Notes: generated by a model from the sequence alone, not told the origin. Counted from the first letter of the stretch, positions 4,705 through 52,048 are shown. The stretch: DNA of 64,000 bases from Opitutales bacterium (GCA_965197745.1 CBDANS010000006.1:585721-649720), one strand, 5' to 3'. Translations and numbers: made by a program.

Positions 4705-5553
4705 CTAAGGTTTTTCACCACGTCTTAACCTCGCCTCGATATCATCTAAGCACGGCATCAGATCAGCAATGCTGTCGACAACATAGTGGGCCCCACGCTG
4801 GTACATGGTGGGGTAAATGCGATCCCGGTGTTTTTGTTTTACCTCGTCGGGGAAGGCGTTCCAATCTTCGAGCGGGACACCCACCTCATTGCCGGAAACA
4901 GCCAACCCAACGGCCCAGCAACCTGCATTGAGACCTTCCTCGATTCCGGTCAAGGTATCGTCGATTTTTACTACCGATTGCACCGGCGAAACGTCGAGTT
5001 CAATGATGTTACGCAATACCATGTGCGGGTAGGGACGTCCACGCTTCACATCGCCGGCTCCGTAGGTGGCGTCGGGGGCATAACCCTGTTTTTCCGCATC
5101 CGCCTGGTTGATGGCGAGCATGCCGGGTAGATATCCGGAAGTAGAACCAATCTTATAGCCACGCTTACGGCATTCTGCGACGACCTCGAGTGTGCCTGGT
5201 ATGAGTTTTGAGTATTGCGACAGGCAAGCTTCCTGCATGGGCACGAAATCTTTAAACATACGGTTCACGTCATCCGCAGTCGGTTCGGCGCCGTGGGTTT
5301 CAACCCAATGCCGGCTAACACTGGGAATTTCGCAGATCAATCCGATATGAACTTTCTTGTGCGCCCCCATGGGAATGCGTGCTTCCTCAAGGGTGATGGG
5401 GACGCCGGCTTTCTCAAACACCTGGCGGAAAACTACAGCCGGCGCCATGCAACCGAAGTCCAGGGTTGTGCCAGCCCAATCGAGGATGATGCCGCGGATC
5501 GGGCCACGGTATGCACGGTCGTATGTAAATTCACGTTCGTTTGTAAATTGCAT
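4705..5553 (-). CDS. phnX: Phosphonoacetaldehyde hydrolase (phosphonatase)
   Basis: DWAGTT nucleophile motif, cap-domain PMGAHKKVHI (Schiff-base Lys), GRPYPHM, KIDDTLTGIEEGLNAG. Colinear with characterised PhnX over its full length. Confidence 0.8.
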   Translation of the reverse strand: MQFTNEREFTYDRAYRGPIRGIILDWAGTTLDFGCMAPAVVFRQVFEKAGVPITLEEARIPMGAHKKVHIGLICEIPSVSRHWVETHGAEPTADDVNRMFKDFVPMQEACLSQYSKLIPGTLEVVAECRKRGYKIGSTSGYLPGMLAINQADAEKQGYAPDATYGAGDVKRGRPYPHMVLRNIIELDVSPVQSVVKIDDTLTGIEEGLNAGCWAVGLAVSGNEVGVPLEDWNAFPDEVKQKHRDRIYPTMYQRGAHYVVDSIADLMPCLDDIEARLRRGEKP

Positions 5554-6103
5554 AAGAAATGAACTTTATCCTGGGGGCTTTAGGGTTTCAGGTAAAGGGT
5601 ATTACTATCAGTTGCTGTGGTACCGGATATTATTGCACGTGGTTCAGCGCGATGTCGGTTATCTCCTTATTGTCATTGCGAGGCCACTAATATTAAATTA
5701 GCGGACGTGATTAGCCTCGTCCCGTTCCCCGGACGCGACGGAGCGCGTCCCTCCATTTTCTTCACCCTTAATATAGACATTGTATCTCAAAAAAAGATCA
5801 CCCTTCTGGAGGGCCACGCGTCGTCGTGGCCGTGGCGATCTAGAGCTATGTCGGCTTCTCCTCGGTACGATTGCTGATTGAATAAGAGAATGGCGGATGT
5901 CGGTTATCTCCATATTGTCATTGCGAGTCCTGCAACCGCAGAACGAAGCAATCCAGGGGATCGCCGGTTACGTGTTGATATTCGCCTGGATTGCTTCGTC
6001 GCAACGCTCCTCGCAATGACATGTGAGAAAGCAGACTTTACCGCATACGCGCATTTCCGTGTATTCGCTTATCCCCTTTTGTCTTCTTCATATTGCAAGC
6101 TGT
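5554..6103. repeat. Repeat-filled spacer 3
   Basis: Direct repeat GCG(A/G)ATGTCGGTTATCTCC(T/A)TATTGTCATTGCGAG at ~5650-5683 and ~5893-5927. Hairpin+CCTCCA at 5731-5755. TGGAGG+hairpin at 5807-5831. Full long-hairpin element at 5916-6021. ORFs 5617..5877, 5698..5913 and 5878..6117 are repeat translations (the ...DCFVATLLAMT type). Confidence 0.85.
5916..6021. repeat. Long-hairpin element copy B (GTCATTGCGAG ... CTCGCAATGAC)
   Basis: Outer arms TGTCATTGCGAG / CTCGCAATGACA. Inner arms ACGAAGCAATCCAGG / CCTGGATTGCTTCGT. Central hairpin at 5953-5989 with loop GCCGGTTACGTGTTGAT. Confidence 0.85.
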
Positions 6104-6187
6104 CTATTGTTGATTAACTCGAGTATAGAAATTGATAAGGTTACTTTCCGGTTCAATTTTGAGAACTTCCCTGTAAAATGCCCTCAA
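6104..6187 (-). pseudogene. Relic of a VOC gene (5' truncation plus in-frame internal deletion), paralogous to 12251..12646
   Basis: The minus strand reads RLRAFYREVLKIEPES|NLINFYTRVNQQ*. The intact paralog has ...RLRAFYREVLKIEPDSG...(~90 aa)...NLINFYTRVDQ*. The DNA of both pieces is about 90% identical to the intact gene. Confidence 0.75.
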
Positions 6188-6191
6188 ACGT

Positions 6192-6920
6192 TCAGGAAAA
6201 TTGGTTCTCAATCAACGCGGGAAGATCCTTGACGCTGGGAATGACGTGTGTGTGCCAATAGCTTCCCCATGCTTCGACCGGTCGAGGACCGCTCAGGACA
6301 CCGACAATTCCGCGACATCCGGCGTTGTATCCTTCCAGCATATCGGCGGGGGTATCGCCGATCTTGAGCACCTCGTGCACGCTCTGTATGTCAAGCTGTG
6401 TCATGGCGTAGTAAATCATGAAGGGGGCAGGTCGGCCGCGGTCGCCGGGAATATGCTCAACATCGACAGAAATATCGACCAATCCGTCTCGGACCCATCC
6501 CAAACCGTCCATGATCGCTTCTGTAATATCCCGGTGAAAACCTGTGTCAGTGGCCACCTTAATGCCGTGCTCGTGACACCACCGGAAGGTGTCTGAAGCT
6601 CCCTCGACCTCGCGGACTTCCTTGCTATAGTGATCGATCATGATCTGCGAATATCGATCGAAGATCTTCGTTGCTTCCTCTTTCGTTTCCGGATCGATGT
6701 TCTTCTCGAAATCTTCGATTGTAATGTCCTGCCCCCTCGCGCGGGCGATGAGAAACTGATAGAGATGAATCTTGTTCGTCCCCATGTGCAGAAGTATTTC
6801 GTCAGGTGTGGTTTTCAAATCGAATTCCACGGCTGCCTTGTAGAGACAGTCCCGGACCCCGGTGTCGTCGTGAACCGTTGTTCCTGAGAGATCAAACATG
6901 ACCATACTTAATTTGCTCAT
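6192..6920 (-). CDS. Phosphonatase-like HAD hydrolase (PhnX-like clade)
   Basis: FDLSGTT, cap MGTNKIHL (Lys retained), GRPAPFM (Arg in place of the usual HAD Lys), KIGDTPADMLEGYNAG. This is the signature set described for the TIGR03351-type PhnX-like family. Confidence 0.7.
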   Translation of the reverse strand: MSKLSMVMFDLSGTTVHDDTGVRDCLYKAAVEFDLKTTPDEILLHMGTNKIHLYQFLIARARGQDITIEDFEKNIDPETKEEATKIFDRYSQIMIDHYSKEVREVEGASDTFRWCHEHGIKVATDTGFHRDITEAIMDGLGWVRDGLVDISVDVEHIPGDRGRPAPFMIYYAMTQLDIQSVHEVLKIGDTPADMLEGYNAGCRGIVGVLSGPRPVEAWGSYWHTHVIPSVKDLPALIENQFS

Positions 6921-6989
6921 TCCTATTGTATTCCTTTCTAATTGGTTAATGGTTCAGACTTTCGCCTTCTATTCCGTGCCACCCGCGTT

Positions 6990-7718
6990 TCAACCCTGGC
7001 AGCTCGCGTGTAATTGAACAATTTCGGAAAGGGTAAGCATGGCGTCCGGTGAATCACCTAATTCCGCCACCACATGGTCAGCCTCTGAAAAATCTTCCTC
7101 TGCGCTATAGGCGCTGGTGGTTACGAGACAAATCATGCCGGCCGCTTTCGCAGCCAACAGGCCGTTTCGAGTATCCTCGACAACGACACAGTCTTGCGCC
7201 GAAACACTGAGTCGCTCCCGGGCGAGATTGTAGATTTCCGGGTCAGGCTTTTTATTTTGGACGATATCGCCGGCCAAAATTTCATCAAATTTCGCTTTTC
7301 TATGCGGGCCGAGTAACTTTTCCAAAATAAGGTTTACCGACCTCTCGTTTGAGGTGGAACAAACAGCCAGCTTAACACCGACCTCAATGGCTTCATCGAT
7401 TATTCGCTCCACCCCGGAGCGTAGCGGCAGTTCTCCTGAATCAATGATGCGCATGAATATATCGGTTTTCAGCGCATGTAATTCCTTTATAAATTTATCG
7501 CGGTCCTCTTCCCTTACTCCGGGCGGCCACCCATCGCCATGGAAGTGATGCCGCATGCGCTCCTTGCCCCCGGATATGGCCAAAAGTCGACCATATAGTT
7601 CAACGCTCCATTGCACATTCAATTCATATTGGGAAAATGCGCGGTTGAAGGACACCCGGTGTCCGTCGCGTTCAGTGTCGACCAACACGCCATCGCAATC
7701 AAAAATTAATGCTTTCAC
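6990..7718 (-). CDS. HAD-IA hydrolase, CbbY-like
   Basis: FDCDGVLVDTERDGHRVSFNRAF, KKPDPEIY, VEDTRNGLLAAKAAG. 4-nt overlap with the aldolase gene. Confidence 0.75.
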   Translation of the reverse strand: MKALIFDCDGVLVDTERDGHRVSFNRAFSQYELNVQWSVELYGRLLAISGGKERMRHHFHGDGWPPGVREEDRDKFIKELHALKTDIFMRIIDSGELPLRSGVERIIDEAIEVGVKLAVCSTSNERSVNLILEKLLGPHRKAKFDEILAGDIVQNKKPDPEIYNLARERLSVSAQDCVVVEDTRNGLLAAKAAGMICLVTTSAYSAEEDFSEADHVVAELGDSPDAMLTLSEIVQLHASCQG

Positions 7719-8590
7719 TTTACTGATGCCAAATCCTGCCCTTTACCAGATCCACCAAACTGCCGGATCTTTTCTCTAACAAGCTGCTTCATACTTGTAT
7801 ACTGGGCTTCCAACACCCGCAGCGGTTCGTAGTCGTCGGGATTGTCACGGTGGTAATCGGCAAACCCATCGATGAAGGCGTGCTTCAGGTTAGTCGAGAT
7901 ATTCACTTTAGCGCAGCCCGACTTTATGCAGCGCTGAATAATCTCGTTGGACAGTCCAGTTCCACCGTGAAGAGCCAGGGGTGTAGCCGTTCGGTGATAA
8001 ATTTCATCGATTAAATCAAAAGCAACATTGGGTGTTCCCTTGTAAAACCCGTGAGCGGTGCCAATAGCCGGAGCGAAAACACCCAGATCGAGTTCCCGGC
8101 AAAAAATTTCCGCTTTGTCTGGATCCGCCAGATGAGCATCCCCATTCCCAACGACAATCTCTTCTTCAACCCCGACGATTTCTCCCAATTCCGCTTCAAC
8201 ACCAACCCCCGCCGGAGTGGCCATCTCCAGAACCTGACGGGAGACAGCAAGATTCTCATCAAAAGGCAGGTGCGAGCCATCGATCATGACGGAAGTCCAC
8301 CCCGTTTCAATGCAACGGCGGATCATATCCAATTCTTTGCCGTGATCCAGATGGAGGACGACAGGGAAAGGTGAATGCTCCGCCAGATCCCGCATCCAAC
8401 CCGCTAATGTTTCATGCCCGTAATATCGCACTGTTTTGGCCGATGCCTGAACGATCACCGGGGCATTCTCTTCTTCCGCCGCGCGCACGATGGCTTTCAT
8501 GGAAGCGTAATCAACCGGGTTGAATGCTCCCACGGCATAACCTGCTTTAGATGCGGCTTTCAATATCGGATTCAAACTTACTAATGACAT
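7715..8590 (-). CDS. Class II ketose-bisphosphate (fructose/tagatose-bisphosphate-type) aldolase
   Basis: AVGAFN, VVLHLDHG, GTAHG, ALHGGTG. I prefer the ATG at 8590 (MSLVSLNP...) over the ORF-track start at 8641, which overlaps the ADH stop. Confidence 0.8.
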   Translation of the reverse strand: MSLVSLNPILKAASKAGYAVGAFNPVDYASMKAIVRAAEEENAPVIVQASAKTVRYYGHETLAGWMRDLAEHSPFPVVLHLDHGKELDMIRRCIETGWTSVMIDGSHLPFDENLAVSRQVLEMATPAGVGVEAELGEIVGVEEEIVVGNGDAHLADPDKAEIFCRELDLGVFAPAIGTAHGFYKGTPNVAFDLIDEIYHRTATPLALHGGTGLSNEIIQRCIKSGCAKVNISTNLKHAFIDGFADYHRDNPDDYEPLRVLEAQYTSMKQLVREKIRQFGGSGKGQDLASVK

Positions 8591-8631
8591 TTCATGCTCT
8601 TCTTTTGATTTTTTTAAATTCGGATTTGTAA

Positions 8632-9741
8632 CTAAGAACAAGGTTCCACGATCGGTCGGATTCCTTCCCTACTTTCCAAAGCACTCATTGCCTCGGTAAC
8701 ACCCTCCGCCGATAAGGGATAACGTGGTCCTGCCATTTCGAAAAAAGGATATCTCTCCTGATTGCGATGGACGAGGTTAATAGCCATCCCGAGATGCCTC
8801 GGTTCGTAATTGTGTCGTCCCACCAGGGTCAAACATTTGGTGATGACATCGTAGGAATGGAGGGTGAAAGTATCATTCGGATAAACCGCGCCCTGGAGAA
8901 GGTAGCGCCCGCCTGTCCGCAGCATATTTATACCTGTTTCCACAACCCTGGCAAAGCCCGTGACCTCGATTAACAGATCGGCGCCTCTCCCATCGGTCAA
9001 TTCCCTAACCGCTTCTACCTGATCATCGCAATCCAGCTTTTCGGCATTCAGGGTGCGATCCACTCCAAAGCGTTTTGCCATCTCCAGGCGTGTATCAAGA
9101 ATATCAACCATGATCACCTGGCTCGCACCTGAAGCTTTGGCAAATGCCGCCGCATATAAACCAAGCATGCCGGCACCCTGAATTACCACGGTATCTCCGT
9201 GATCCACCCCAATCCTGTCCAATCCGCCGGCAACTGTAGCCGCTGCGCACATCAATGGGGAAGCAGTCTCATCCGGCATGCCTTCGGGAAGCTTGAATAT
9301 CCCCGTCCCCGGTTTCAGGTAAACATACTCACCAAATGTCCCGAGGAAATAAGGAGGTACATCACTGACGGAGTGACCGTATTTAAACAGATTCAAGCAT
9401 TTTTGCGGCAGCGCATAATCCTGGCAAAAGATACAATCGCCGCACGACGCCATGATCGTCCAGGAAATCCGATCACCCACGGATAGTTGCTCACCCGCGG
9501 CATCCCTGGCATCCCTGTCACCCATTTTCTCCACGATGCCTACACCTTCATGACCCATCACTGAAGGCACAGGAAAAGGTCGACGCCCTTTCCAACTGTG
9601 CATGTCGGAACCACACACCGTAGCGATTTTCGTTTTTACAAGGATCGCTCCTGGTTCCAAATCATCCGGCAGCGGATATTCCCGATCCTCCAGGGGCTCA
9701 CCCACACCTAGAAAGAATACTGCTTTCCCCCTCTTACTCAT
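8632..9741 (-). CDS. Zinc-dependent alcohol dehydrogenase (MDR family; resembles the phosphonate-catabolism-associated ADH clade)
   Basis: GHEGVGIV, structural-zinc CGDCIFC, Rossmann GAGMLGL. The clade assignment (TIGR03366-like) is inferred from context and memory. Confidence 0.75.
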   Translation of the reverse strand: MSKRGKAVFFLGVGEPLEDREYPLPDDLEPGAILVKTKIATVCGSDMHSWKGRRPFPVPSVMGHEGVGIVEKMGDRDARDAAGEQLSVGDRISWTIMASCGDCIFCQDYALPQKCLNLFKYGHSVSDVPPYFLGTFGEYVYLKPGTGIFKLPEGMPDETASPLMCAAATVAGGLDRIGVDHGDTVVIQGAGMLGLYAAAFAKASGASQVIMVDILDTRLEMAKRFGVDRTLNAEKLDCDDQVEAVRELTDGRGADLLIEVTGFARVVETGINMLRTGGRYLLQGAVYPNDTFTLHSYDVITKCLTLVGRHNYEPRHLGMAINLVHRNQERYPFFEMAGPRYPLSAEGVTEAMSALESREGIRPIVEPCS

Positions 9742-10135
9742 ATCCCATCAATACAATATATTTCTTACCAACTCACTGCACCACTCATTATGCAAGGTAA
9801 CTCCGCCGCCATATTGCCACAAGATTTATTATTATGAATTGGGTCGTAGAACTATAACGATTGAGATATCATAAGGTTGCGATTTGATACACGATGCATG
9901 TTGAAGGGCCACGCTATGCCTGTCATGCCGTAGTCCCGTGGTGGCGGGACGAACGAAGGCAGATCGTGGCCGTTTGTTATTCGGTAATTATCGGAAAATA
10001 CGCGGACGCGATCAGCCGTCGCCCGGTGGACTATGGCCGACAGGCATCGCGCGTCCCTCCATATTTTACATCCCCTCGTGCACGCTTCTACGCATTCACC
10101 CATAATCGCATTCACCCTTTCAACTTTCTTTCTAT

Positions 10136-10273
10136 TGTCATTGCGAGGATCCTGCAACTGCAGGAGACGCGGCAATCCAGGCGAATGCCGGATACGTGTT
10201 GATATTCGCCTGGAATGTAAGATGTCAGGCTACTGCCCTCGGTAGCCACGTCGCAACGCTCCTCGCAATGACA
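10136..10273. repeat. Long-hairpin element copy C
   Basis: TGTCATTGCGAGG...CCTCGCAATGACA. Internal palindrome CCTGCAACTGCAGG. Central hairpin at 10177-10213 (CCAGGCGAAT-GCCGGATACGTGTTGAT-ATTCGCCTGG). GGCTAC..GTAGCC sub-hairpin. Confidence 0.85.
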
Positions 10274-10574
10274 GTTGAGAAAAAAGTCTATTTCTGCTTT
10301 ACCGCTTACACACATTACCGCATATCCACATTCACCCTTACTCCCTTTTACCCATATCTACATTACCTGGAGGGCCATGCTCCGTCATGGCCGTTAGGTG
10401 TTCGGTAAATAACGAAAAATACACGGACGCGATCAGCCGTCGCCTCGAAGATGCGCGAGGACTATGGCCGACAGGCACTGCGCGTCCCTCCATATTTTAC
10501 ATCCCCCCGTGCACGCTTCTACGCGTTCACCCATTCACGCATAATCGCATTCACCCTTTCAACTTTCTTTCTAT

Positions 10575-10716
10575 TGTCATTGCGAGGATCCTGCAACTGC
10601 AGGAGACGCGGCTACCGAGCGCAGCGACATCTTCCATTCCAGGCGAATGCCGGTTACGTGTTGATATTCGCCTGGATTGCTTCGTCTCCCGCAGTTGCGG
10701 GATCCTCGCAATGACA
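10575..10716. repeat. Long-hairpin element copy D
   Basis: Same ends as copy C. CCTGCAACTGCAGG pairs with CCCGCAGTTGCGGG. Central hairpin at 10639-10675 with loop GCCGGTTACGTGTTGAT. Confidence 0.85.
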
Positions 10717-10844
10717 AAGGTAATCAAAACCCAATCCGTAAAAAGGGTTACCCGACGGTTACTTATCACTATCTGGCTGTCTTGGATCGCGCATCCTAAT
10801 ATTATGAAGGGAGCAGACCTTTTTTTAATATTCCCCCTTTGAGC

Positions 10845-10894
10845 TTGACAGACTGCCTGATTAATATAAATTAATGAGTTTATACTCACTGAGT
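10845..10894 (+). promoter_or_regulatory. Putative sigma70-like promoter plus TGAGT/ACTCA operator upstream of the TetR gene
   Basis: TTGACA at 10845-10850. TAAATT / TATAAA candidates at 10865-10872. Overlapping palindromes TGAGT-N4-ACTCA-N1-TGAGT at 10875-10894, 14 nt before the ATG. Confidence 0.35.
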
Positions 10895-10907
10895 TATTAC
10901 TTATCAA

Positions 10908-11501
10908 ATGATTGCGGTTGGAAAAAGAGTCAAACAGAAAGCAGAGACGCGAGAACGAATTCTTAAAGCTGCTTACCATGAATTTTCGAAAAAAGGAATC
11001 CAGGCGACGAAGACTGCCGAGATTGCCCGATCAGCTAAACTTTCGCATGGGGCAATCTTTGTTCATTTCGCCACTCGAGAGGACATTCTAGCCAGTGTAA
11101 TTGATCAATTTGGTATCAGGTTAGGCAGCCAATTGGAGAAACGCCTGAAAAATAAAAGCAGCGTTCGCGAGATACTTAAAGCTCACCTTAATACCATTAA
11201 GGAATTCGAATCGTTTTATACGGAATTAGTCATCCTGGGACCACAATTGCCTAAATACGTACGAGGAACTTTATTTACGGTGCAGAACGGGTTGTTGCAT
11301 TATTTTATGGCAGCCCTGGAAAATGAGATTCCGAGCAAACGTTATCGCCATCTATCCAAAAGTCTAATATTTAATACCTGGATGGGGTTGGTTCATTATT
11401 ATGTAGCGAACAGAGATCTTTTTGCGCCAGGAAGATCGATTATCTCAAAACAGGGTAATCGGATTATAAGACATTTTCTAAACCTGATTGATGTAAAATA
11501 A
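10908..11501 (+). CDS. TetR/AcrR family transcriptional regulator
   Basis: N-terminal HTH RERILKAAYHEFSKKGIQATKTAEIARSAKLSHGAIFVHFATREDIL. 197 aa. Confidence 0.85.
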   Translation: MIAVGKRVKQKAETRERILKAAYHEFSKKGIQATKTAEIARSAKLSHGAIFVHFATREDILASVIDQFGIRLGSQLEKRLKNKSSVREILKAHLNTIKEFESFYTELVILGPQLPKYVRGTLFTVQNGLLHYFMAALENEIPSKRYRHLSKSLIFNTWMGLVHYYVANRDLFAPGRSIISKQGNRIIRHFLNLIDVK

Positions 11502-11519
11502 CAATGGAAGGAGAAAACA

Positions 11520-11771
11520 ATGACGGAAAAGTGTAAAGCATGTGGTTCCTGTGGTATGCCTCTATTAAATAAAGAAGATTTTGGAGGGGCCGATATGAGT
11601 AACGATTACTGTGTACATTGCACCGATGGGGACGGTAAGTTAACGGCTACATTCGAGGGAATAGTATCTTATTATGCTGACGAGTTTCAAAAAGAACAAG
11701 GTCTGGACAAAACTGAGGCACGAAAGATGGCCGCAGAAACCGTTTCTAAATTACCCGCCTGGAGTAATTGA
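11520..11771 (+). CDS. Small zinc-ribbon protein
   Basis: CKACGSCG and CVHC cysteine pairs. AAGGAG RBS 8 nt upstream. 18 nt after the TetR stop. Confidence 0.65.
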   Translation: MTEKCKACGSCGMPLLNKEDFGGADMSNDYCVHCTDGDGKLTATFEGIVSYYADEFQKEQGLDKTEARKMAAETVSKLPAWSN

Positions 11772-12250
11772 TTATTTAATGGGTAGATTTGTAGAGGTTA
11801 AACTAACAAACTGAATTTATTATTTTAATTGGAAAGGGTCAGCCTCTGCATGGAAGATCTTAGTGAGAAAGAAGTCTTTTATGTTAGCTCGAGACCTGCA
11901 ACAGCGGCGCTAAGCTACCGAGTGCAGTAGCCCACCTGTCGTCCATAGCCACGTCGCAACGCTCCTCGCAATGACAAGTGAGAAAAAAGTCTATTTCTGC
12001 TTTACCGCTTACACACATTACCGCATATCCACATTCACCCTTACTCCCTTTTACCCATATCCACTTTACCTGGAGGACCATGCTCCGTCATGGCCGTTAG
12101 GTGTTCGGTAAAGAACGGAAAATACACGGACGCGACGACGCGCGTCCCTCCATTATTTACATTCCCGCATTTCCACTTGTTCGCTTACACCCGTAACCGT
12201 GTTCCAGCTTTACCGCTTACACGCATTTTCGCGTATTCGCTTATCCCCTA
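11772..12250. repeat. Repeat-filled spacer 5
   Basis: Partial long-hairpin element at ~11890-11976. A 188-nt segment at 11948-12135 is ~96% identical to 10245-10432. Hairpin units at 12071-12095 and 12128-12152. ORF 11884..12081 (..CHCEERCDVA..) is spurious. Confidence 0.9.
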
Positions 12251-12646
12251 TTATTGATCAACTCGAGTATAGAAATTAATAAGGTTACCGTCTGGATCAC
12301 GAAACCAGATTGAACGATTTCCCCATTCCTGGGTCGTTGGTGGTTTAACCCACTCGATATTTAATTTCATTAAGCGTTCATATTCTTTATCAACGTCCTC
12401 TACTAGAAATTGCAGGGAAACACACCTGTTGGTGGCTGGTATTGAAGAGCCTTTAACCCTTTCGTCCTGGGCTTTAAAACTATATAAAGCCAGTATCCCT
12501 CCCTCGGTATGAAACTCTACATAGATTGAACCTTCCCCACTATCCGGTTCAATTTTGAGGACTTCCCTGTAAAATGCCCTTAATCGATCAACATCATGGG
12601 TAGTTATACAACTGTGCGTGAATTTCATAAAATCAGTTCGTGTCAC
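12251..12646 (-). CDS. VOC family protein (glyoxalase/bleomycin-resistance-like)
   Basis: 131 aa. ..THDVDRLRAFYREVLKIEP.. and ..FRDPDGNLINFY.. modules. Confidence 0.75.
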   Translation of the reverse strand: MTRTDFMKFTHSCITTHDVDRLRAFYREVLKIEPDSGEGSIYVEFHTEGGILALYSFKAQDERVKGSSIPATNRCVSLQFLVEDVDKEYERLMKLNIEWVKPPTTQEWGNRSIWFRDPDGNLINFYTRVDQ

Positions 12647-41701: not shown

Positions 41702-43274
41702 GAATGGCGTTAAGATAAGGGATAGAATGAGTGCAATAGATGCTTGTACAGGGACCGTTGGAGAGCTACCCTAACGAGCATGCAAAAACAAAACTTAACT
41801 CGTTATTTTCCAGGATTTAATCAGGTCCTGTTCGGTCGTGCTCCCCGAACAGCCCTTGCACAGATGGAGGGTAAGCTGGTAGAAATACGGCGGTCAAGTC
41901 TTTCCGAGCTATCGGATATCTTCGGGCAGTGGGTGCCGCAAAAGTATTTACACCGGAAGCCTCGAGGGGCTAACAGCCGGCGGAGATTGTTCAGCCAAAA
42001 CGTGACCTTCTGGGCATTTTTGTTCCAAGTGCTCTCACCACGGACTGCCTGCCGGGAAGTGGTGCGCAAGCTCCAGAGCTATTGCAGCATGAAGGGGCTG
42101 AAGTTGGCTAAAGGAACGGCCTCGGCCTACTGTCAGGCGAGGCAACGGCTGTTGGTGCAAGACCTGCACGGGATCCATGAAGCGATCAGTGAAGAGGTGG
42201 CCGGGAGAGTGACCGACGATCAACGGTGGAAAGGTCACGAGGTAAAAGTGGTCGACGGTACGGGTATCGCCACCGCCGATACGCCGTGCTTGCAGAGGTG
42301 TTACCCACAGCCTTCGCAGCAACGAAGCGGCTGCGGCTTTCCGGTGATGAAGCTGGTGGGCTGTTTTTCTTTAGCCAGTGGGGCGCTTTTACACTGGATG
42401 GAGTCCTCACTAAGGCATCATGACAGTGTGCTGTTGCGGGGCATGATCGGATTTTTTCAAAAGGGTGATGTGGTCCTTGCCGACCGGGGATTTTGCTCTT
42501 ACCTCAATATTGCCCTGCTTAAAGGCCGCGGTGCTGAAGCGGTCATGCGTTTGCATCAGCAACGAAGAAGCGACTTTCGTCAGGGCAGGTCCTTGGGTAG
42601 GTATGACCGGCTGATCATGTGGAAGAAGCCGCAAAATGTCTTCGGCTTCAGTCGCGAGCAGTGGCGGCAAATCCCTGATGAGATCCCCGTACGGCTGGTG
42701 AAGATTTTCATTTTCATCAAAGGTTTCCGCGCCCATAGCGTAGACCTCGTGACTACCTTGAGCGATCCTCACCAATACTCCCACCACGATCTCGGAGAAT
42801 TATACTATCGGCGCTGGGCAGTGGAGCTTTACTTTCGCCACATCAAAACCACCATGGGGATGGAGATCCTGCGCTCTCGCTCGGTCGCTCTCGTGCGCAA
42901 AGAGATTGCGATGTTTGCCATCGCCTACAATCTCTCATCCGCGCTCTTTTGCAGCAAGCTGCCAGTGCCTTCCACCGCGACCTCTCCCGGCTAAGCTTCA
43001 AGGGGGCTGTTGACACCCTCCGCCAATATCAAAGTGCGCTCGCGGCCACCCGGTTTAATCCCAGAGCCCAACGATCTGTCATTGACGAGATGATACACCT
43101 CATTGCCCTCGAATCGGTCCCCCTACGTCCCTTCCGATACGAACCAAGAGTCCTCAAACGTAGACCTATACCTTTCCAACGATTGACTCATCCACGAGCC
43201 ATGATGACCGTCTCTGCTTCACGAAAAAACAAAGGCTTTTATCATCCTAAACCACCCTTATCTTAACGCCATTC
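41702..43274 (+). mobile_element. IS4-family insertion sequence with 11-bp target-site duplication
   Basis: 20-bp terminal IRs: GAATGGCGTTAAGATAAGGG (41702-41721) and its complement (43255-43274). Flanking direct repeat AGGCCTGACCC at 41691-41701 and 43275-43285. Confidence 0.85.
41744..43266 (+). pseudogene. IS4 DDE transposase, frameshifted near the C-terminus
   Basis: VVDGTGIATADT, VLADRGFCSY, YYRRWAVELYFRHIKTTMGME. The frame switches at ~42931-42936 (AATCTCTCATCC) from ..IAYNL to IRALLQQAASAFHRDLSRLSFKGAVDTLRQY... (ORF 42949..43266). Confidence 0.75.
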
Positions 43275-51310: not shown

Positions 51311-52048
51311 TTAAGCGCAGTCGGGCCGCAGGTCGATGTATCGCTCGCCACGCTCACCGGCCTCGCCCCGCACGAGATAGACCGGGATCTTATGCTGGTC
51401 CACGTCAACCCACGCGGTATCACTGCTGCAGTAGCGAATCGTATATCCCGCTCGCCTTCGATCGCTGCGGTTCGTTTCGCTGGAGTGCAGCAAATAAGAA
51501 TCGTGGATAGACACACTCCCGGCCGTCATCCGGAGGGTGACGGCACCTGCTTCCATCTCAGCGGTTACGATGATCTTTTTGCTCAGCATATCATGTGTCT
51601 CCGACGGTATGGTAGCGTGTTCCCGATACCCCAGGTGCGATCCCGGGATTACCATCATAGCGGAATTTTCGGTGTCGGCATCATCGATGGCTAGCCAGAC
51701 CGAGACAACATCGGTGCCCTGAACACTTGGCCAATAGGGATTGTCCTGGTGCCAGGGAACGGTATCCACGCTGCGCGGCGGTTTAATGAATACACTGGAG
51801 AAAACCAGAACCAGATTAGGACCCAGCACCGATTGTACCGCGTCCAGCAACCGCGGTTGCCGACAGATTTCGAGCCAGCGCTCATCACGTGAATGCGGTT
51901 CATCAAGATAATTGTCATTTCTCAGCATCCCCTTCTCGGTGGCCTCGTTCAGGAGACGCCGATTCGATTCCACTTCCTCCGGACTGAACACGCCCGGATA
52001 CAGGCAATACCCTTCTTTAGCGAAACAATCCGGATCATGATTCAGCAC
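51311..52048 (-). CDS. Phytanoyl-CoA dioxygenase (PhyH) family Fe(II)/2-oxoglutarate oxygenase
   Basis: VPWHQDNPYW, IDDADTENSAMMVIPGSH, HDSYLLHSSETNRSDRRRAGYTIRY. Confidence 0.75.
   Translation of the reverse strand: MLNHDPDCFAKEGYCLYPGVFSPEEVESNRRLLNEATEKGMLRNDNYLDEPHSRDERWLEICRQPRLLDAVQSVLGPNLVLVFSSVFIKPPRSVDTVPWHQDNPYWPSVQGTDVVSVWLAIDDADTENSAMMVIPGSHLGYREHATIPSETHDMLSKKIIVTAEMEAGAVTLRMTAGSVSIHDSYLLHSSETNRSDRRRAGYTIRYCSSDTAWVDVDQHKIPVYLVRGEAGERGERYIDLRPDCA

Follow-up and report, generated by a model that had tools for sequence, protein, structure and literature searches.

A segment of four genes at positions 6192–9741 in a 64,000-nucleotide stretch of an Opitutales bacterium genome (GCA_965197745.1 CBDANS010000006.1:585721-649720; referred to below as the window) lies beside a gene for the phosphonoacetaldehyde hydrolase PhnX and encodes a zinc-dependent alcohol dehydrogenase (ADH), a class II aldolase, a CbbY-type HAD phosphatase, and a PhnX-like hydrolase. 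The reading that we favor, and hold to be modestly probable as a whole, is that this segment is a horizontally acquired cassette for 2-hydroxyethylphosphonate (HEP) that landed beside a resident phnX, with a PbfG-type ADH and the PhnX-like hydrolase acting on the phosphonate and a generic aldolase-CbbY pair alongside. All five genes are present as open reading frames (ORFs) on the minus strand at the positions where the original prediction had placed them, and the locus is laid out as follows.

4705–5553, minus strand: PhnX, phosphonoacetaldehyde hydrolase (TIGR01422, 315 bits against a cutoff of 220)
5554–6191: repeat-rich spacer of 638 nt between the PhnX-like and PhnX genes, with dispersed-repeat copies that are also found upstream of the ADH gene
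6192–6920, minus strand: PhnX-like HAD hydrolase, predicted to hydrolyze a C–P bond via a Lys Schiff base (NCBIfam scores, alignment with B. cereus PhnX, AlphaFold2 (AF2) model)
6990–7718, minus strand: HAD-IA phosphatase, ortholog of CbbY (xylulose-1,5-bisphosphate (XuBP) 1-phosphatase) by its match to PDB 4UAV at 57% identity
7715–8590, minus strand: class II (Zn) ketose-bisphosphate aldolase (PF01116, 298 bits; the ORF reaches a TTG at 8641)
8632–9741, minus strand: Zn-dependent ADH of the PbfG/HpnZ type, predicted HEP dehydrogenase (PF08240 and PF00107)
9742–10907: non-coding region upstream of the ADH gene, with two tandem repeat units of about 435 nt and 52-nt inverted arms

Two hydrolases and a probable PbfG-type dehydrogenase

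The product of 4705–5553 is a bona fide PhnX, as had been proposed, scoring 315.3 bits and exceeding the TIGR01422 equivalog cutoff of 220. All signature residues are kept (DWAGT, FGC, the PMGAHKKVH cap, GSTSGY, and RGRPYP with the GRP motif), and its close homologs carry the source name phosphonoacetaldehyde hydrolase. PhnW, the customary partner of PhnX, is not in the window: neither tblastn nor Pfam scans returned a homolog in the 64 kb, in agreement with the original prediction. The tblastn searches of the window also returned no homolog of PhnA, of OPA-family transporters, or of PhoD, and the larger ORFs gave no Pfam match to a class V aminotransferase or to a transporter; no search was aimed at the C–P lyase genes, which the original prediction had likewise called absent.

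The PhnX-like protein scores best on TIGR03351 (163.4 bits, under the cutoff of 218.9) and next on TIGR01422 (108 bits), and its sequence matches in the PDB are PhnX structures only. It had been said to carry a phosphonatase-like signature, and the alignment with B. cereus PhnX bears this out, placing K50 on K53, R163 on R160, and D10 on D12. Two outcomes named beforehand as damaging, the loss of the cap lysine on proper alignment and a grouping with ordinary sugar-phosphatases, were not observed: K50 stays on K53, the leading families are TIGR03351 and TIGR01422, and the PDB hits are all PhnX. Further matches to B. cereus PhnX are M49, G50, T126, and both Mg-binding Asp residues. The Schiff-base Lys of the cap and the Arg are near-invariant in 118 aligned sequences. 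The residue at Asp+2 is Ser (DLSGT), whereas it is Ala in PhnX and Asp in ordinary phosphatases; the DxAGT form of motif I, with Ala in 92 of 111 wider representatives, is not found in the window protein, and Ser at this position marks a tight PhnX-like clade. In an AF2 model with a predicted local distance difference test score (pLDDT) of 87.7, the top Foldseek match is PhnX 1RQL with ordinary HAD phosphatases close behind, and because of this small margin the fold search adds little to the sequence alignment.

The clade is both tight and widespread. At E ≤ 1e-10 the database holds 717 relatives, the top 120 of which share 76–94% identity with the query, and proteins at 77–89% identity occur in species-representative genomes of Verrucomicrobiota/Opitutales, Paracoccaceae, Gemmatimonadota, Sedimentisphaerales, Pirellulales, and Methylomirabilota. 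Across at least six phyla, identity within the clade is 76–90%. When its tightness was gauged by searching 1.8 billion cluster representatives, only three full-length representatives were found at 47–53% identity, and beyond them lies the wider DxAGT family at 33–42%. The ORF in the window encodes 242 amino acids, and the public gene call begins at Met8.

The closest family of the ADH is TIGR03366 (306.9 bits; cutoff 328.1), with Tdh as the runner-up at 150 bits. PbfG, a PF00107 Zn-ADH described by Piazza et al. (Protein Sci 2026, dated 15 September 2026; PMC13576164), oxidizes HEP to phosphonoacetaldehyde with a kcat/KM of 88,500 M-1 s-1, and degradative pbfG clusters with phnX, often without phnW, are reported from Actinomycetota, Planctomycetota, Cytophagales, Gemmatimonadota, and Verrucomicrobiota. 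Clustering of pbfG with phnY-phnA also occurs, and pbfD, like phnW, is often missing. In PbfG, Zn is liganded by Cys45, His66, and Cys166, and HEP is predicted to be bound by Ser47, Arg56, His124, and Asn298 (PMC13576164). The counterparts in the window ADH, matched by numbering offset only, are C43, H64, C165, S45, R54, H123, and N311, and all seven are invariant in 24 aligned ADHs. These comprise both of the ADH types that occur beside PhnX-like genes, which are mutually 30% identical and both score 292–307 bits on TIGR03366. Chondrinema litorale, an organism named in PMC13576164, carries a cluster of DUF5690, an XRE regulator, a Zn-ADH, and a PhnX-like HAD; this ADH is 37% identical to the window ADH and 40% to the second type, values that fall inside the reported spread of the PbfG family. 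It was the only homolog found by tblastn against plasmids, and a match on an Arthrobacter plasmid has no ADH nearby. Verrucomicrobiota, Gemmatimonadota, Planctomycetota, and Cytophagales, from which PbfG clusters are reported (PMC13576164), are also the taxa of the PhnX-like loci.

A third outcome named beforehand as damaging, a lack of conserved linkage, was not observed either, and the linkage recurs in other genomes (loci are denoted by L numbers): among about 20 genome loci, the ADH adjoins the PhnX-like gene in 16 and the aldolase and HAD pair is present in 14. Other neighbors of PhnX-like genes are PhnW, PhnA, a phn-type LysR regulator, DUF5690, GlpT/UhpC-like antiporters, PhoD, a phosphate-selective porin, and phosphodiesterases of the NPP and Exo_endo_phos types. 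PhnW adjacency contradicts the supposition that PhnX-like genes never accompany this transaminase, and was seen in L011, L014, L022–L024, and a Fulvitalea plasmid (L112). In L011, L014, and L112 there is no other PhnX in the fetched stretch, a pairing that points to the PhnX-like clade as phosphonoacetaldehyde hydrolases.

Given that the ADH keeps the PbfG residues and that clusters of ADH and phnX without phnW are described in PMC13576164, the route most likely encoded is HEP to phosphonoacetaldehyde to acetaldehyde and phosphate. In the first step, the PbfG-type ADH would oxidize HEP with NAD+ to phosphonoacetaldehyde, as suggested by its family membership and its conserved substrate-binding residues. 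In the second step, the PhnX-like hydrolase, and also PhnX, would form a Schiff base with the aldehyde through the cap Lys, and the phosphoryl group would pass to the Asp nucleophile and then be hydrolyzed off, giving acetaldehyde and phosphate; the conserved catalytic residues and the PhnW adjacency in other loci argue for such a C–P hydrolysis. Oxidation of HEP by the ADH would account for a phnX cluster without phnW. The earlier proposal of a phosphonate-catabolic cluster built around the PhnX-like hydrolase and the Zn-ADH without PhnW is therefore retained on the strength of the catalytic residues, the PbfG residues, and the conserved linkage. The description of the route as uncharacterized is given up, as PbfG of the same ADH family has already been shown to make phosphonoacetaldehyde from HEP in phnX clusters without phnW (PMC13576164).

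Several observations weigh against this reading. The ADH scores slightly under the TIGR03366 cutoff, and PbfG was assayed in a reaction coupled to the canonical Vibrio PhnX rather than to a PhnX-like enzyme (PMC13576164). The pocket of the PhnX-like protein departs from that of B. cereus PhnX at three positions (A14 to S, C22 to T, and Y128 to F), and the register of His56 is shifted, with Leu in its place and a His one residue earlier. The window, L017, and L022 each have a genuine phnX beside the PhnX-like gene, an arrangement that speaks for separate substrates rather than mere redundancy; this coexistence and the altered pocket leave room for a PhnX-like substrate other than phosphonoacetaldehyde. 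The order aldolase-CbbY-OPA antiporter-PhnX-like also occurs without an ADH, in L013, L014, L030, and L109/L110.

The aldolase-CbbY pair

The HAD at 6990–7718, originally labeled CbbY-like, is a CbbY ortholog with the cap domain included, matching Arabidopsis CbbYA (4UAV) with E = 5.7e-79 and R. sphaeroides CbbY (4UAR) with E = 7e-39. Its cap motifs DTE.DGHR..FN and GG.ER are invariant from metagenome loci to plant CbbYA. The aldolase scores 297.8 bits on PF01116 and passes the TIGR00167 subfamily cutoff only, staying under all equivalog cutoffs (297 vs 423 and 296 vs 343), and its best PDB match is the fructose-bisphosphate aldolase (FBA) 7NC7 (E = 2.5e-61). The motifs HLDHG, GTAHG, and HGGTG, which serve Zn and the phosphate of dihydroxyacetone phosphate (DHAP), are invariant across 95 homologs.

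We surveyed the surroundings of the aldolase in 80 metagenomic loci of close relatives (L032–L108 metagenome loci). The HAD directly follows the aldolase in nearly all of them, and an antiporter or PhnX-like gene is present in only 3. Most of these aldolases (58–67% identity) sit with DhaK, DhaL, a pyrroloquinoline quinone (PQQ) dehydrogenase, and sometimes malate synthase G; DhaK, at 412 bits, exceeds its cutoff of 406, and the PQQ dehydrogenase is of the glucose/quinate/polyol type. One locus has the pair interleaved with a pyruvate dehydrogenase-like E1/E2 complex, a fructose 6-phosphate (F6P) aldolase, and sugar isomerases. The module is widespread and was seen in both soil and marine metagenomes. 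Judged by these neighborhoods, the pair is a separate, independently mobile two-gene module. We also considered a cbb operon, where RuBisCO, phosphoribulokinase, and transketolase would be expected, and rejected it, the genes found being a DEAD-box helicase, the PQQ dehydrogenase, DhaK/DhaL, and malate synthase; RuBisCO and phosphoribulokinase are not among the annotated ORFs of the window or the related loci.

No position in the HAD or the aldolase separates the proteins in phosphonate contexts from those in other contexts, which together with the invariant cap motifs suggests that the pair does the same chemistry everywhere. In this chemistry the aldolase would condense DHAP with an aldehyde, and CbbY would then take the C1 phosphate off the resulting D-threo ketose bisphosphate, which would not be a phosphonate-cleaving step. 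The most likely role of the pair would be on the carbon side, where it would convert triose phosphate to a ketose monophosphate, F6P or xylulose 5-phosphate, during growth on the C2 product.

The same observations bear on the route first proposed for the cluster, in which the ADH oxidizes a polyhydroxyalkylphosphonate, the aldolase cleaves it in the retro-aldol direction to a 2-oxoethylphosphonate, and the two hydrolases degrade the latter. The four genes are indeed linked in 14 genome loci, some class II members of the FBA family (IolJ, YdjI) cleave their substrates to DHAP and an anionic aldehyde, and the YdjI structure is a distant PDB match of the window aldolase. However, with its DHAP-phosphate motifs retained, the aldolase requires a ketose-1-phosphate as substrate, and no kinase is encoded to form one; since the chemistry of the pair moreover appears to be the same in all contexts, the absence of a kinase argues against retro-aldol cleavage. 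A C1 phosphatase orthologous to CbbY would work against the route, the pair is mostly found without phosphonate genes (3 of the 80 aldolase loci), neither protein has specialized residues, and we know of no natural polyhydroxy phosphonate of the required kind. We therefore regard the retro-aldol route as very improbable.

The association of the pair with PhnX-like genes is nevertheless not accidental. In a group that we call clade A (the window, Verrucomicrobia, Opitutales, and Gemmatimonadota), the order aldolase-CbbY-(antiporter)-PhnX-like is invariant, even where the ADH is absent. In Paracoccaceae, the aldolase-CbbY pair, the ADH, and the PhnX-like gene form a compact operon divergent from a phn-type LysR gene. 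The Paracoccaceae aldolases are no closer to those of clade A (60–62%) than to aldolases from non-phosphonate contexts, and the clade A aldolases are closer to the latter than to the Paracoccaceae ones, whereas identity between the PhnX-like proteins of clade A and Paracoccaceae is 81–82%. The pair is thus joined to the PhnX-like gene in Verrucomicrobiota, Gemmatimonadota, and Paracoccaceae, and the divergent aldolases next to similar PhnX-like proteins suggest that it was recruited more than once.

Such repeated recruitment, like the gene order that clade A loci keep with or without an ADH, would fit a single direct pathway. Here the ADH and PhnX-like hydrolase would act on a C2 phosphonate, the aldolase would join an anionic C2 aldehyde to DHAP to give an XuBP-type compound, and CbbY would strip the C1 phosphate, so that the C2 unit enters pentose phosphate metabolism. 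Candidates for this aldehyde are phosphonoacetaldehyde and a glycolaldehyde phosphate derived from 1-hydroxy-phosphonoacetaldehyde. FBA-type aldolases yield D-threo products, and DHAP and glycolaldehyde phosphate give XuBP; the close orthology of the HAD to CbbY, with its conserved cap domain, and the difference between the PhnX-like and PhnX pockets also speak for this pathway. On the other hand, pairs of ADH and PhnX-like genes without aldolase-CbbY are common (L003, L011, L016, L018, L022, L027, and L111), the PhnW adjacency indicates plain phosphonoacetaldehyde as the substrate, the aldolase and HAD have no context-specific substitutions, and none of the genes is a known source of glycolaldehyde phosphate. 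A literature search likewise gave no support, finding nothing that links CbbY, an aldolase, or glycolaldehyde with PhnX. We consider this pathway unlikely, if still worth weighing. A bolder form of it, which we hold to be quite unlikely, would make the pair a hitherto unrecognized device of non-photosynthetic bacteria for capturing an anionic C2 aldehyde with DHAP, through an XuBP-type intermediate to a pentulose 5-phosphate; it would be tied to C–P chemistry, with the Ser-clade PhnX-like enzyme acting on, for example, 1-hydroxy-phosphonoacetaldehyde and phosphonate carbon passing into the pentose phosphate pool.

Alternatively, the genes may share only their regulation, as parts of a phosphorus-scavenging toolbox in which triose or sugar phosphates brought in from outside are processed by the aldolase-CbbY pair together with the OPA antiporter, and phosphonates in parallel by the PhnX-like enzyme, the two being metabolically unconnected. 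The neighbors PhoD, phosphate-selective porin, NPP-type and Exo_endo_phos phosphodiesterases, GDPD, GlpD, and GlpT/UhpC-like antiporters would suit this arrangement. Yet the compact four-gene operon of Paracoccaceae stands under a phn-type LysR, the fetched stretch there containing neither an OPA nor a PhoD gene, and the window cassette retains the pair despite the loss of the antiporter. We find this explanation distinctly doubtful, and continue with the reading of an HEP cassette that carries a generic pair.

Origin of the cassette and related loci

The cassette in the window has a close relative in the Guaymas Verrucomicrobia metagenome-assembled genome (MAG) L025: in DNA, the ADH-aldolase-HAD part is 82% identical and the PhnX-like gene 86.5%. 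As in the closest relatives generally, L025 has a 1.36-kb gene for a GlpT/UhpC/PgtP-like OPA antiporter (8604–9966) between the HAD and PhnX-like genes, and the window has 19 nt (6955–6973) in its place, a precise absence that leaves the window cluster without a transporter of its own. In a related genome (L117), a 92%-identical phnX adjoins a PhyH-family gene and is not accompanied by the cassette. The impression that the segment is richer in GC was confirmed by computation, with 51.2% for the cassette and 54.2% for PhnX against 43–45% for the flanks. The DNA identity with L025, the precise absence of the OPA gene, the GC content of 51% vs 43–45%, and the L117 phnX without the cassette together speak for horizontal acquisition beside a resident phnX. 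The cassette moves between phyla.

The cassette is flanked on both sides by copies of a dispersed intergenic repeat family with the core TTGTCATTGCGAGG, for which 9 matches were found against 0.02 expected. The copies lie at 589–686, 1801–2296, 5651–6030, 9964–10720, and 11946–12586, concentrated in the first 13 kb, and the two tandem units and the inverted arms upstream of the ADH gene belong to this family. No ORF within the upstream region 9742–10907 gave a family hit, no Rfam match to a riboswitch or other RNA family was found in the window, and a promoter and terminator scan of the window gave counts no higher than the shuffled expectation; a weak terminator-like hairpin lies at 5814–5800, inside the spacer between the two hydrolase genes. 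That spacer had been estimated at 640 nt and computes to 638 nt. The translational coupling claimed for the ADH-aldolase-HAD trio holds for the aldolase and HAD genes, which overlap by GTGA, but not for the ADH and aldolase genes: the aldolase starts at the ATG at 8590, as backed by homologs and the gene call in L116, a metagenome contig that matches the window, which start puts a 41-nt spacer downstream of the ADH stop codon.

Related loci have gene contents of their own. The closest homolog of the PhnX-like protein (90%) is the copy in L022–L024 (5629–10729), where PhnX, a saccharopine dehydrogenase-like protein, PhnW, ADH, and the PhnX-like enzyme are encoded in this order beside a DUF5690 protein. 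In a Sedimentisphaerales MAG (L011, 7542–15094), a class III aminotransferase gene and two genes of the MtmB family (monomethylamine methyltransferase-like) come after PhnW-ADH-PhnX-like, a set that may serve the anaerobic handling of N-methylated aminophosphonates. Gemmatimonadota locus L013 (2707–5617) has a thiamine diphosphate (ThDP) enzyme and a TauE sulfite exporter just upstream of aldolase-CbbY-antiporter-PhnX-like; the combination resembles sulfoacetaldehyde handling, and the catabolism of C2 sulfonates and phosphonates may be co-located there. Two PhnX-like paralogs are found in L109/L110 (9001–16385) with aldolase-CbbY, a major facilitator superfamily (MFS) transporter, PhoD, and a TonB receptor, and no ADH. 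In the Verrucomicrobia/Opitutales operons of L001–L004 and L016 (~10780–11760), a phosphoglycerate-dehydrogenase-like 2-hydroxyacid dehydrogenase always comes after the PhnX-like gene and before PhoD and an MFS transporter, with phosphonolactate as a possible substrate. Genes for PhyH-family dioxygenases recur beside phnX (L117, 9112–10849), beside aldolase-CbbY (L057, 9114–9878), and in the PhnX-like loci L027 and L111, and one is also found in the window at 51311–52048.

From 12000 to 64000 nearly all genes of the window lie on one strand in an array of small accessory enzymes, including at least six S-adenosylmethionine (SAM) methyltransferases, four APH-type phosphotransferases, an AAC(3) acetyltransferase, a GNAT protein, a nucleotidyltransferase, HADs, esterases, and PhyH. 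A DDE transposase gene (41744–42994) and several GC-rich islands are located in this array. An integron origin of the array was considered and rejected, as no attC-like element is common to its intergenic spacers.

Comparison with known systems and significance

Among known systems, the PbfG clusters (PMC13576164) come close: a PF00107 Zn-ADH adjoins a PhnX-type hydrolase in the absence of phnW and pbfD, both occur in the same phyla, and the residues for Zn and HEP are conserved. Unlike them, the window cassette includes aldolase and CbbY genes, of which the paper makes no mention, its hydrolase belongs to the distinct and tight PhnX-like clade marked by Ser at Asp+2, there is a further, canonical PhnX at a distance of 638 nt, and no transporter is encoded. 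With the PhnW-PhnX pathway for 2-aminoethylphosphonate, the cassette would share the final hydrolysis of phosphonoacetaldehyde on a HAD enzyme via a Lys Schiff base, as predicted here; in contrast to that pathway, the 64 kb encode no transaminase and the aldehyde is predicted to arise from an alcohol rather than an amine. The TIGR03351 hydrolases resemble the window protein in having a cap Lys, in replacing the HAD Lys with Arg, and in being associated with Zn-ADHs; the window protein differs from them by its score under the cutoff, by DLSGT instead of DxAGT, and by an identity of 33–42% to the wider family. CbbA and CbbY of cbb operons are likewise a class II ketose-bisphosphate aldolase and CbbY phosphatase pair, but the present pair is accompanied either by phosphonate genes or by DhaKL and the PQQ dehydrogenase, without RuBisCO or phosphoribulokinase.

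A considerable part of the dissolved organic phosphorus in the sea consists of HEP and HEP esters. Not until 2026 was a specific catabolism of HEP demonstrated, and the cassette in the window widens this picture. Its core of an ADH plus a hydrolase is of an already known kind; what is new is that the PhnX-like proteins form a clade of their own, that they coexist with PhnX, and that the aldolase-CbbY pair recurs in non-photosynthetic bacteria. In many phyla, the predicted hydrolase partner is a member of this unusually conserved PhnX-like clade. CbbY is regarded as a RuBisCO-repair enzyme restricted to photosynthetic organisms, and its orthologs are believed, according to a review (PMC9833046), to be absent outside them. 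The pair found in heterotrophs bears on this view, as its conservation there points to either an unrecognized source of XuBP or a different physiological CbbY substrate.

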